Assembly (NCBI GenBank): GCA_964434575.1
Contig: CAYSWB010000007.1
Location: 4,702-68,701 of the forward strand
Direction of reading: 5' to 3'
Length of the DNA stretch: 64,000 nt
Source of the DNA: an uncultured Candidatus Peribacteria bacterium
GTDB lineage: Bacteria > Patescibacteriota > Gracilibacteria > Peribacterales > Peribacteraceae
Made by a program: the position numbers and the translations under genes. The notes under the pieces are model-generated. The model was given only the letters and a program-made list of their open reading frames with translations. It was not told the origin of the DNA and searched no databases. Below, one piece after another: positions 47,509 to 62,453 of the stretch. Position 1 is the first letter of the stretch. Each line of letters starts with the position of its first letter.

Positions 47509-48135
47509 TTAGCCGGTCGTTTCATCGGTCAGGGACGTCATCAGGCGCAGGTACCTTACGCATGCGGCCGCAGAAATGCCGGCGGGCAACGGCAGATCGT
47601 CCTGCGGCGGGAGAGCTTCCAGTGCATTGAGCGTCAGCTCATGGATACTGGTTGCTGGTTGGTCACCACGGCGATACGGCACGAACGCCGAGCGAGCCAG
47701 AAAATCCTCTTCGGTCTCGATAACAAGTTTGCTCTCGCCGGTAGGAGGAGCCCCGTCTATGACAACGCGCTGACCCTCCCGGCCCACCGCTGTCCAGTAA
47801 TGATACGGCATTACGGTTTCTGTACCGGTTGCTGGACGGGGCAACGCGTACACCGACGCAATGGGTACTGGGAGTTCCAGCTTGCGCACGGCGTGCCGCA
47901 CCGCACTCATACTGAAGCCACACGAACCGCTCTTCGGCGCCTTGCTGGCAGGCTTATAAATATCACGTCGCCACACTGCTGCGATTTCAGCGTTGAAGGT
48001 CGTGCGAAGTGCCGTCAGCGCACGCAAAAAGCGTGCTTCTTTTGGCTCTAAATGATTCCTCAAGACCCGCAATAAATCTGCCTGTGAAAAGCTGCCACAA
48101 TCAAGCGTACTGCGCTGGGGTGCGGGGCACGTCAT
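47509..48135 (-). CDS. paralog A of a conserved-Cys/His/Asp protein, predicted papain-like (transglutaminase/NAT-type) fold (208 aa)
   Basis: By eye it is roughly 40% identical to the 56866-57495 product. Shared blocks are FSQA(D/E)LLR, G(S/G)CGF, LPVP, YH(Y/F)W.AVG...QRV.IDGA.P, F.PYRRG.QP and LTDE. Spacings are Cys-40-His-15-Asp. Confidence 0.7.
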   Translation of the reverse strand: MTCPAPQRSTLDCGSFSQADLLRVLRNHLEPKEARFLRALTALRTTFNAEIAAVWRRDIYKPASKAPKSGSCGFSMSAVRHAVRKLELPVPIASVYALPRPATGTETVMPYHYWTAVGREGQRVVIDGAPPTGESKLVIETEEDFLARSAFVPYRRGDQPATSIHELTLNALEALPPQDDLPLPAGISAAACVRYLRLMTSLTDETTG

Positions 48136-48142
48136 ATATTAT

Positions 48143-60900: not shown

Positions 60901-62453
60901 GCGAACTGAATCAGCTGGAAGCGGAATTGGCGCGCCGCGGCTTGCCGCTGCCCGTGGCCAAGCCCGCACCCGTGCCAAAGGTGCAGGTCCGGCGCAATAA
61001 CCTCCCAGACAAGATTTACGAAGGACCGCCGCGTCCCATCCGCCCAGCCGACCTGCCGAAGGCGTCGGACGCACAGATTTCGAACCGCTACACCCTGTTG
61101 CAGCAAGGCAAGGCCGTGAACCCACAGCCGGGAGAATTGGCGCAGCTGGAAGCCGAGTTCGCGCGCCGCGGCCTGGCGATCCCGATCGTAAAAAACCCCG
61201 TGGTCAAAGTGAACAACCTGCCGGACGTGTATCCGAAACCGGCGCCGAAAACCCCGCGCGTGAAGCGCAACGACTTGCCGGACAAGTATCCGACGCCAAC
61301 ACCAAGGCCTACTACCCCGCGTCCCCAGCCCAAGCCGACGGGGAAGGTTGAGCCTCTGATTCCATTCAAGGACCCAAAGGCGAAACCAACAGGAAAGGTT
61401 GAGCCGCTGGTTGGATTTAAGGATCCAAAGCCCAAACCAACCGCTCAGCCGGAACCGCTGCCCATGGATCAGTTCGGAAAGGGCGCCGGGAAGCCCAACG
61501 CAAAGCCGACTGCAGAGCCTGAGCCGCTGGTTGGATTTAAGGATCCAAAGCCCAAACCAACCGCTCAGCCGGAGCCGCTGCCCATGGATCAGTTCGGAAA
61601 GGGCGCCGGGAAGCCCAACGCAAAGCCGAACCCTACTCCGAAACCCGCACCTGGTCCCAAGCCGCAACCCAAACCGAAGCCCGAACCGAAACCGGAGCCA
61701 AAGCCAGCTCCTGAACCCACGCCCACCCCGAGGCCGACGCCCAACGAGCCCATCCCGGTGAACGGCATCGACAAGGTGGATGACGCCCTGCTTGTGCAGC
61801 GCTACAACGCGCTGCAGTCAGGCAAGGCCACGAATGCCCAGCCGGGTGAACTGGCGGCTATGGAGCGCGAGCTGACGAACCGCATGGGCCTGCTCTATCG
61901 GTCGGAATCCGAAGTCAAAAACCTGGGCGCTTCGATCGGAAAGAACATCAACGCGAACGGGAACAATACGCCGTACCAGCAGCTGCGCCTCAAGGCGGTG
62001 AAAGACGAGGTGGCCCGCCGTGCCGCCGGCGGCACGCAGCAACCGCGTCCGGGCGCTTCCAAGGGGCCCAGCAAGCCCGTCACGACCGAAGCGGAAGACG
62101 CCGTCCGCCGCGCCGCCGAAAAGAACCTGGCCAAAGCCACGCCATCCCGCCTGAAGGCGCAATACAATCAAATCGATTCGGCGATCGAAAATGAAATCGT
62201 CGCGCTGGAACGCGCCGGACTGAAGCAAACCGCTGCCGCCCTGCGCTCCGGCAAAGGCGATGAAGCGGTGAGTATCGTCGCGAAAGAATTGCAAACCCTG
62301 CCCAAGCTGAAAGGGAAAGACGGTCTTGAGTTCGTCCGCAACGTCTACGATGTCCGGGCGCTGCAGCGCCAGCGCGACCTCATCGTCAACGAGTTCAAGC
62401 GCCGCAAGATCGCGCTGCCGGCAGTACGGCCGCCAAAGCCGAACCCCGCCTGA
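57912..62453 (+). CDS. giant repeat protein (1513 aa): charged N-region, beta-rich modules, coiled coil, central hydrophobic/Gly-rich segment, Pro/Lys-rich repeats and helical QPGELA modules
   Basis: Uninterrupted ORF. The start is set at the ATG at 57912 (ATGA overlap). The longer track ORF from 57759 overlaps the small gene in another frame. Confidence 0.8.
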   Translation: MTLFSEHRLLHLAGGEGPSGDVERKEKAVKSASASEPVEPGREGFEKDTKEVGAMLLKADPTGKKVEKPLKELTATREKVLKEDDNLQKEKKVEIEGARKVVDESRPRSAERPTIPADASVLPEDVNIRDSRLNGYQLRTIGGVIIAAKPGNPQIFSVEPGIGATVTLTELVGNTKQRFAILLTFVGNQRLVDGASLPGAETAYNYGRRGDSLIRYAKNGAETLVVNPQFDDNWRPLYQQVVEMQENVGSSALQQGGYRQEGDGTWKKAGSPWQFRADGTGRWLVRNGTGPLMPVETTNVAPEDPELGVFQNLGAALRITNEGVQARLNSDNAQSIKREGAVQILKLGAKPYDGEGGGWEYSTGFSVNVNPQFQFVGGRWAVRWFTSEAWSDPGSRRAASGGGEEAINNILSYLAGLNERIGRGVPLTFARPPEQRPVTVAPLVPKAQQEAAAQPDPTEGMTEEQKDAYKESIIKQFVEKEQQTGVAAEAYDKSKNTKDLLSVISSMQGELEFLRQNSKLMDKEAPAAKTAFERLLQRRTQTLEAALKQLEPVVRDLAQRSEAGIRRARAKIMEVIGRERQQIINAYEQRAAGGTFGSLKTGLTGSDPYALLITDAEMTISRMNLSLDRLNKADAEPEGLAKLRAVQSALSSIAIANRSDAAFYQEVFAIEQEAITVTRDVTIAVITTVVPIGAGAVFSGLKTTAAVANTANAAKTPLLVVFRQGAVEGATLAAPGAVGKGVDDVQRGAKTVKQAIVDGTIEVGVGAGLGGGLKTGFTAGGRGISALRGNKPAPGVEPVPGGAPEPIPVVKPKVGPDGIPFVKPKPIGADGIPVVKPKPIGTDGIPVVRPKPKIGPDGIPIVKPKPATSAPKATPEPPAPKPTTRLVGKADLPKVTVNQLNKRYTEIVSGTAKNVQKNELATLRAEFARRGIAPPTVKSGPVQVNPLPDAIGPTPATNLLPAAGRPLRDTTLRTATDARVIARYQALVGRRAAPRPGELNQLEAELARRGLPLPVAKPAPVPKVQVRRNNLPDKIYEGPPRPIRPADLPKASDAQISNRYTLLQQGKAVNPQPGELAQLEAEFARRGLAIPIVKNPVVKVNNLPDVYPKPAPKTPRVKRNDLPDKYPTPTPRPTTPRPQPKPTGKVEPLIPFKDPKAKPTGKVEPLVGFKDPKPKPTAQPEPLPMDQFGKGAGKPNAKPTAEPEPLVGFKDPKPKPTAQPEPLPMDQFGKGAGKPNAKPNPTPKPAPGPKPQPKPKPEPKPEPKPAPEPTPTPRPTPNEPIPVNGIDKVDDALLVQRYNALQSGKATNAQPGELAAMERELTNRMGLLYRSESEVKNLGASIGKNINANGNNTPYQQLRLKAVKDEVARRAAGGTQQPRPGASKGPSKPVTTEAEDAVRRAAEKNLAKATPSRLKAQYNQIDSAIENEIVALERAGLKQTAAALRSGKGDEAVSIVAKELQTLPKLKGKDGLEFVRNVYDVRALQRQRDLIVNEFKRRKIALPAVRPPKPNPA
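60342..60509 (+). repeat. in-frame 39-nt (13-aa) tandem repeats G(P/A/T)DGIP(F/V/I)VKPKPI, x4
   Basis: KVGPDGIPFVKPKPIGADGIPVVKPKPIGTDGIPVVRPKPKIGPDGIPIVKPKP. Confidence 0.8.
61401..61629 (+). repeat. near-perfect 120-nt-period tandem duplication inside the 1513-aa gene
   Basis: 61401-61509 and 61521-61629 are identical except for one base (61453 A versus 61573 G). Each copy encodes EPLVGFKDPKPKPTAQPEPLPMDQFGKGAGKPNAKP. Confidence 0.9.

Follow-up and report, generated by a model that had tools for sequence, protein, structure and literature searches.

We analyzed a seven-gene locus (genes A-G, 47509-62453) in a 64,000-nt stretch of DNA from an uncultured Candidatus Peribacteria bacterium (assembly GCA_964434575.1, contig CAYSWB010000007.1, positions 4,702-68,701, forward strand); this entire stretch is the window, and unprefixed coordinates are counted from its first nucleotide. 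Sequence comparison with relatives indicates that the locus is a pair of separable, very rare cassettes that share a variable slot flanked by rpsF-rpsR and yebC, rather than one obligate seven-gene module. Cassette 1 consists of D-C-B, and cassette 2 of F-G together with one A/E-type gene. In the reading that we favor, with a probability of about 0.55, these are two independent, lineage-restricted accessory cassettes that would supply membrane-tethered giant proteins with dedicated small partners; the protease of giant C would be restrained or folded by B, and G would be a modular scaffold.

The genes lie in two operons that diverge, as a first-pass annotation made from the DNA letters had described, from a 117-nt AT-rich spacer between E and F (57496-57612) with 36.8% GC compared with ~63% for the window. 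The minus strand carries E (56866-57495), a Cys-His-Asp protein of 209 amino acids (aa); D (56453-56779), a helical protein of ~108 aa; C (48534-56456), a giant membrane protein of 2640 aa; B (48252-48521, 89 aa); and A (47509-48135, 208 aa), the second copy of the Cys-His-Asp family that we call A/E. On the plus strand are F (57613-57915, 100 aa) and G (57912-62453), a membrane protein of 1513 aa. Each giant gene overlaps the small gene before it as ATGA, the TGA of D lying on the ATG of C at 56453-56456 and the TGA of F on the ATG of G at 57912-57915. This coupling, which the first-pass annotation had also seen, recurs in relatives for D/C, and the F/G pair of relative L009 is instead 4 nt apart. 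As had been noted, 12 nt separate the stop codon of C from the start of B. The flanks of the locus are housekeeping genes, yebC (46738-47484) on one side and rpsR/rpsF (62511-63341), encoding S18 and S6, on the other, with no gene downstream of G on the same strand before the convergent rpsR.

The cassettes occur apart in relatives. In L002 and L003, and in their respective near-identical copies L005 and L007, the order is S6-S18-D-C-B-YebC (homologues of the window genes), and nothing of A, E, F or G is present. The available DNA of L006 contains D and the first part of C and lacks A, E, F and G; a tblastx comparison of its upstream region with the window gave noise only. L009 carries S6-S18, an A/E-type gene (P0008), the G orthologue, the F orthologue and YebC, with no D-C-B. 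A distant lineage, L004/L008, has a 2123-aa C homologue with B directly downstream and no D. The content of the slot therefore switches between cassettes, and among close relatives it carries cassette 1, cassette 2 or both. Because the housekeeping proteins of L009 are 85% (YebC) and 86% (S6) identical to those of the window, compared with 79-82% for L002 and L003, L009 is at least as near to the window as the latter two.

The proposal of the first-pass annotation that the seven genes form one functional module did not survive this comparison, in which the two gene sets were found apart. Its expectation that the components would be neighbors in other genomes was borne out within D-C-B and within F-G-A/E; the seven-gene combination was never found. 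C was not similar to G, nor D to F, by BLASTP or profile-profile comparison; the coarse domain order that had been noted for both giants is an architectural resemblance without detectable homology by those methods, and the apparent twin operon seems to be a juxtaposition of analogous but unrelated cassettes. The C family has only three further protein clusters among 5.8 billion, and all of its relatives in genome collections are Candidatus Peribacteria metagenome-assembled genomes (candidate phyla radiation, CPR). The C giants diverge faster than their neighbor genes (50-58% compared with 79-90% identity).

Beside rpsF, a membrane-protein open reading frame (ORF) cut by the window end (63426-63977, minus strand) matches the position of an HTTM-domain gene at L009:1581-2528; the flanks of the slot are therefore syntenic and its content is not. 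The giant of L004 (L004:2875-9511) adjoins a ribosomal-protein operon and not the S18-YebC slot, and it is preceded by a 399-aa protein with a CAP (cysteine-rich secretory protein) domain (L004:1530-2729) instead of D. L008 is 97.6% identical to L004.

The tail of C has features of a calpain-type protease. Homologues P0002, P0003 and P0004 align with C from end to end at 50-58% and 28% identity, the 28%-identical one being the 2123-aa giant of L004/L008. Within the predicted protease core at residues ~2370-2640 (48537-49349, minus strand), Gln2377 (49326-49328), Cys2383 (49308-49310), His2588 (48693-48695) and Asn2606 (48639-48641) are invariant in all four homologues, in the motifs QxxxGNC, HAYS and NPH. 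The order of Cys, His and Asn, with an oxyanion-hole Gln upstream of the Cys, agrees with the catalytic triad and oxyanion Gln described for family C2 (PMC4631099). Pfam PF00648 (Peptidase_C2) was the sole family to match all four tails (best E 2.8e-5), the match covering the Cys-motif region only. In a Foldseek search of the PDB with a low-confidence model of the tail, protease cores of calpains took each of the top 16 places (E 5e-4 to 1.5e-2, probability 0.8-1.0). These results support well a calpain-type (clan CA, C2-like) cysteine protease as the catalytic type of the tail; formal membership of family C2 is not established. The giant protease that the first-pass annotation had suspected thus gains a predicted core, divergent and yet apparently intact in its catalytic residues, and this tail is among the best-conserved parts of C across the homologues.

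A central hydrophobic hairpin at residues 1226-1271 of C (52644-52781, minus strand; Kyte-Doolittle peak 3.39) consists of a strong helix, a conserved G-x-x-S-P turn and an Ala/Ser/Gly-rich helix, and G1248, S1251, P1252, L1253, A1254, A1256, S1259, A1260, A1262 and G1263 are invariant in the four homologues. A third, weak hydrophobic stretch lies near residue 1340. C has no hydrophobic stretch ahead of residue ~1219 and G has none ahead of residue ~674, so neither giant has a signal peptide, as the first-pass annotation had read. Four tandem, beta-rich repeats of ~50 aa (residues 1705-1964, 50565-51344, minus strand) were found in C by an iterated hidden Markov model (HMM) search, with independent E-values (i-E) of 1e-12 to 1e-24; they are kept in P0002 and P0003 and missing from P0004. 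Outside the protease end, Pfam, NCBIfam and profile searches detected no family in C, whose N-terminal 1200 residues are helical and beta-rich. Of the 2640 residues of C, 11 are Cys. In the part that separates the membrane region from the repeats, at residues ~1520-1600 (51600-51900), all homologues have the conserved motif K.[FY]L..NDV[DN]DA.R...A.AL[IL]G..L.....R.A...AH..PG.ID.L, which matches no family and sits at a differing relative position in the distant P0004.

Small genes stand on both sides of C. Homologues of B, 27-40% identical, lie 4-14 nt past all C homologues of full length, that of 2123 aa in the distant lineage among them, with a gap of 12-14 nt in L002/L005 and L003/L007. B has no hydrophobic segment and hence no export signal, and it resembles no part of C, as a propeptide might. 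Because it always stands beside the protease end and has no export signal, B is most plausibly, by analogy, a cognate inhibitor or chaperone of the C protease; co-transcribed cytoplasmic inhibitors of papain-fold proteases have an established precedent in the staphostatins and Spi (PMC3462683). D homologues are 58-63% identical and keep the same 4-nt overlap with C in L002 and L003, and a D homologue is also present in L006. D is most likely a dedicated chaperone, folding or assembly partner of C; it is missing from the L004/L008 lineage and so is dispensable there. A promoter-like site that could serve D-C-B lies between E and D (56793-56821, minus strand; TTCACG-17-TATACT with an upstream TG, a consensus match only).

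Cassette 2 encodes a giant with a conserved and a variable half. The orthologue of G in L009 (L009:4580-8158, minus strand, 1192 aa) has the same start and is 51% identical over residues 1-789 only (57912-60278, plus strand). The two proteins have in common this N-terminal half, a membrane segment (residues 680-702 of G, 59949-60017, plus strand) and a strictly conserved Gly/Ala-rich stretch that follows it; beyond that they cannot be aligned. In G, the variable C-terminal half is 17% Pro and 10% Lys, the protein has no Cys, and four copies of a ~45-aa helical motif, ..RY..L..GKA.N.QPGEL..LE.EFARRGL., lie at residues 893-939, 975-1017, 1049-1096 and 1288-1324 (60588-61883, plus strand; iterated HMM search i-E 7e-19 to 2e-30), separated by Pro-rich, TonB-like PKPEPKP spacers. 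The repetitive C-terminal halves seen by the first-pass annotation are therefore present in both giants, as four units each. In the L009 orthologue these modules are replaced by a different proline-rich region that ends in a DnaJ J domain with an HPD motif (Pfam PF00226, E 3.8e-13, 49.8 bits compared with a 27.8-bit cut-off); the Pfam scan found no DnaJ match in window G. A J domain functions only beside Hsp70 with ATP. The C-terminal half of the G family would for that reason face a cytoplasm, that of the producer or that of a host. In L009, a 101-aa homologue of F (41% identical) precedes the G orthologue by 4 nt.

G is known from few sequences. Word-indexed homologue searches with G and with E returned only the queries themselves and missed the L009 orthologues, which came to light through an exhaustive profile search with A and E. 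Scans of metagenome contigs for the G family, by alignment and by a DNA pattern for VNVNPQFQFV, gave 0 hits, and PDB sequences searched with a profile of the N-terminal half of G gave none. An in-frame 120-nt tandem duplication in G (61400-61629, plus strand; 1.9 copies, 99% identical, Tandem Repeats Finder (TRF) score 453) adjoins 39-nt and 51-nt repeat arrays (60329-60466 and 61327-61580). The copy number of the 120-nt unit could vary among strains, though it is identical in a contig of the European Nucleotide Archive (ENA).

A and E are paralogs (40% identity, E 3e-45), and the HMMER profile of the two, searched exhaustively against 1.84 billion representatives, found exactly three members: A, E and P0008 of L009. 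The Cys/His/Asp pattern noted in the first-pass annotation remained invariant when the third member was added (C73, H114 and D129 in E numbering, in 3/3, at spacings of 41 and 15 residues). Such distances are typical among enzymes of the papain-like or transglutaminase-like kinds, and the secondary structure prediction is compatible with their layout of a Cys at a helix N-terminus and a His and an Asp on adjacent strands, so that the fold is possibly of one of these kinds; the corresponding model, built on a shallow alignment, has a predicted local distance difference test (pLDDT) score of 39.4. The A/E profile had no match in Pfam or among PDB sequences, and A and E are not similar to the protease domain of C. 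The suggestion that they are accessory modifying enzymes found nothing in its favor beyond the Cys-His-Asp pattern, and C-type giants occur without an A/E homologue.

An AT-rich 'ATAAAATATAT..TAATA' box abuts the starts of all three A/E genes (48136-48177, 57496-57530 and L009:3570-3612), in agreement with the earlier view that each paralog has a promoter-like element of its own. At A, the box (minus strand) abuts the start codon in the manner of leaderless genes and contains TTGATA/TTGCTA-16-TATAAT matches. The arrangement suggests that the A/E transcripts are leaderless. The GC content at third codon positions (GC3) of A (0.61) and E (0.67) is far lower than in neighbors (0.78-0.98), a hint that the genes came from elsewhere or arose as cassettes, and on these grounds the A/E genes appear to behave as self-promoted cassettes that travel with F-G rather than with D-C-B. 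In L009, ~100 nt at the 3' end of rpsR are duplicated (3354-3453 and 4401-4498, 1047 nt apart, 88% and 78% identity), with the second copy decayed by stop codons and a hairpin terminator after each copy; the two repeats bracket P0008 like an insertion scar. No such direct repeats were found flanking A or E in the window, unlike P0008 in L009. Viral-contig scans for A/E, the C protease domain and G gave 0 hits, leaving a phage origin without support.

Taken as a mechanism, the favored reading of two accessory cassettes would run as follows. The central hairpin would hold C in the membrane, with the calpain-type core at its C-terminus, and translational coupling would make D, as a dedicated folding or assembly partner, in fixed proportion to C. 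B would bind the protease domain in the cytoplasm as its cognate inhibitor or chaperone, in the logic of staphopain/staphostatin and SpeB/Spi. G would be a second, unrelated membrane-tethered giant with a conserved N-terminal half and anchor, F would be its small partner, and its exchangeable C-terminal half would face a cytoplasm with proline-rich spacers and helical modules, or in the L009 relative with a J domain. A and E would be small Cys-His-Asp proteins that accompany F-G.

Several results weigh against this picture. C perhaps has two or three membrane segments, and the count of flanking positive-inside charges is inconsistent across the homologues; the proline-rich spacers and beta-rich repeats would fit an extracellular location equally well. 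The Peptidase_C2 scores fall under the 23.8-bit gathering cut-off (16.1 bits for window C, 11.9 for P0003 and 18.2 for P0004), the AlphaFold2 model of the C tail, made from a shallow alignment, has a mean pLDDT of 46.6, and the template modeling (TM) scores of the calpain matches are just 0.24-0.32. Searches of PDB sequences by phmmer or profile, with C, the protease profile, the P0004 tail and a whole-giant profile, did not reach a calpain. The A/E model (pLDDT 39) was unusable, and its fold search found no match. The role of B is read from its position, and its sequence is not inhibitor-like, with no similarity to staphostatins, Spi or any Pfam or NCBIfam family. In addition, the co-occurrence of the genes partly reflects shared ancestry in a shared syntenic slot and is not independent evidence of linkage, and the lineages are few, five for C and two for F-G.

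We weighed four other explanations. That the giant ORFs are chance GC-rich frames or misassembled repeats, and A and E pseudogene remnants, is very hard to credit. It could appeal to the near-identical tandem repeats inside G, to the weak GC3 bias of A and E, and to the very long antisense ORFs that occur at 63% GC, such as 50775-55772 (plus strand, 1665 aa) opposite C and 57849-61667 (minus strand, 1272 aa) opposite G. We take these two antisense ORFs to be chance products of the high GC content and not genes. The called strands are backed by a GC3 of 0.77-0.83 (0.83 for C) and by conservation of the proteins over their full length, with unchanged starts and stops, in other lineages; homologues elsewhere share the start sites of both giants, D, B, F and the A/E paralogs. 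The region 47507-62669 is reproduced ungapped at 99.97-100% identity by a 14.5-kb ENA contig (ERZ3430527) and by the Logan contigs of three sequencing runs, which span every gene junction and the 120-nt duplication in G, and gene A was also seen joined to yebC or to B on the independent Logan contigs L001 and L013. The check for misassembly across 48.5-62.5 kb that the first-pass annotation had called for thus came out in favor of the sequence. Improbable, though less so, is its own interpretation that the seven genes make up one surface system of membrane-anchored protease/adhesin giants, with A and E as modifying enzymes and B as inhibitor. The genes are contiguous and divergent, both operons have a like small-gene/giant-gene coupling, there are two A/E paralogs for two giants, and the beta-rich repeats and proline-rich spacers of both giants are of a kind known from wall-spanning proteins. 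The two halves are nevertheless found apart in relatives in the same slot, and A/E homologues are known elsewhere only from L009 among the 1.84e9 representatives, which implies that C-type giants work without them. A purely extracellular C-terminal half of G is incompatible with the J domain of its orthologue, a true J domain that weakens the surface/adhesin view of G in general, and neither signal peptides nor sortase motifs nor known adhesin domains were found in these proteins.

A more serious contender, which we still judge unlikely, is that the giants are contact-dependent effectors akin to polymorphic toxins, exported by an unrecognized route, with hairpins that insert in a host membrane and C-terminal payloads that act in the host cytoplasm; D and F would be export chaperones and B an immunity protein. 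The presence/absence polymorphism at one slot among close relatives and the fast evolution of the giants would be expected of such proteins. The G family retains its N-terminal half and swaps its C-terminal half, a hallmark of polymorphic toxins (PMC3482391). Each payload is a domain of the cytoplasmic type in a protein that has no signal peptide, and a small partner always stands directly behind the C-terminal catalytic domain. Peribacteria are also inferred symbionts with many large, variable, predicted-extracellular proteins (PMC4736985). In the window, however, no known trafficking domain (LXG, WXG, RHS, PAAR, haemagglutinin repeats and others) and no secretion-system gene was found, the protease tip of C is its most conserved rather than a variable part, no orphan immunity or toxin cassettes lie nearby, no host is known, and PADLOC and PHROGs gave insignificant matches only. 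Toxins of the LXG/WXG type VII-like kind were considered and set aside, as no such domains were found and visual inspection of D and F showed no WXG motif. Somewhat more doubtful again is a CPR-specific way of reaching into a host that is independent of secretion systems, in which the hairpin would insert in the partner membrane and deliver swappable payloads of the cytoplasmic type, either a calpain-like protease or a J domain to hijack the Hsp70 of the host. We hold as equally doubtful the allotment of parts that this would entail, namely a translationally coupled chaperone for each giant, an immunity protein for the protease, and A and E as mobile, self-promoted accessory cassettes.

Elsewhere, the window is rich in genes for the cell envelope (9258-12227, 16601-18679, 23999-25831, 34193-35803, 36880-38829, 39460-40734 and 41538-44762), among them two class-A penicillin-binding proteins (one with Big_7), VanW, an FtsX-ECD protein, an S41 C-terminal processing protease and two large PMT_2 glycosyltransferases. 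The upstream part also encodes an M16 peptidase and PheT. A tRNA-Ser(GGA) gene (26061-26150, minus strand) lies within the 5' end of the called PheT ORF (25918-29004, plus strand), and the true pheT start is therefore taken to be downstream of the tRNA gene.

How CPR (Patescibacteria) cells with ~megabase genomes attach to and exploit hosts is an open question in which large lineage-specific proteins are prime suspects, hardly any of them with an assigned activity. The locus gives one such giant a testable enzymatic handle, a predicted calpain-type protease with a candidate cognate regulator. The swapping of giant cassettes at one slot and the exchange of C-terminal modules are the pattern expected of host-interaction genes. 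If true, the effector interpretation would mean a new delivery principle; otherwise, the C family would offer useful examples of membrane-anchored bacterial calpains with an independently arisen, eukaryote-like (DEK1-like) layout.

No described system corresponds to the locus, as the first-pass annotation had supposed: scans of all seven proteins against Pfam and NCBIfam gave no family above threshold, and those against PHROGs and PADLOC gave at most insignificant, sub-threshold matches. Individual parts do resemble known systems. Bacterial calpain homologues are rare, have no Ca-binding sites, are in some cases membrane-associated and have never been characterized biochemically (PMC4631099). 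C shares with the calpains (MEROPS C2) the order Gln...Cys...His...Asn and the motifs QxxxG[DN]C, HAYS and NP[WH], but its Cys-His spacing of ~205 residues is longer than classical, a His takes the place of the Trp of NPW, no C2L, PEF or EF-hand domains were found in it, and it has a dedicated 89-aa partner downstream and a coupled partner upstream. Plant DEK1 is a membrane-anchored calpain of >2000 residues with a C-terminal protease core. C is likewise a giant, membrane-anchored protein with its protease core at the C-terminus, although its anchor is a central hairpin behind a 1200-residue soluble N-terminal half and not an N-terminal multi-pass domain; the DEK1-like layout is presumably convergent.

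The C-B pair resembles staphopain/staphostatin and SpeB/Spi in that a small gene without an export signal lies only a few bases behind that of a papain-clan protease, the two being conserved as a pair. Spi, however, resembles the SpeB propeptide, whereas B resembles no part of C, and staphopain and SpeB are secreted zymogens, whereas the C protease is the tail of a 2640-residue membrane protein. Polymorphic toxins, for which papain-like peptidases are known tips (PMC3482391), have in common with the locus a large multidomain protein (here C) whose catalytic domain is C-terminal and whose gene is directly followed by a small one, a conserved N-terminal and an exchanged C-terminal half (in G, from two sequences), and a variable, fast-evolving locus. 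They differ from it in that here there is no recognized trafficking or repeat domain or secretion apparatus, the C protease is conserved, and arrays of orphan cassettes are absent. The L009 orthologue of G recalls E. coli DjlA, a membrane-tethered J-domain protein, in its membrane segment and its J domain with HPD. The Pseudomonas syringae effector HopI1 has a proline-rich repeat region and a C-terminal J domain, and the L009 orthologue likewise has a proline-rich region followed by a C-terminal J domain. Neither DjlA nor HopI1 has a counterpart of the 680-residue N-terminal half of G or any homology outside the J domain, and window G has no J domain. In Candidatus Peribacter, very large proteins (1219-3861 aa) are the main source of strain variation (PMC4736985). 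The giants of the locus are very large, variable proteins of the same taxon; the Peribacter envelope proteins, unlike them, are described as exported and often cysteine-rich, whereas C has few Cys and G none, and neither has a signal peptide. The calpain family, the logics of a protease with a small partner and of a coupled small gene, and the large variable proteins of Peribacteria are thus known already; what is new is the specific protein families and the slot in which the cassettes are swapped.

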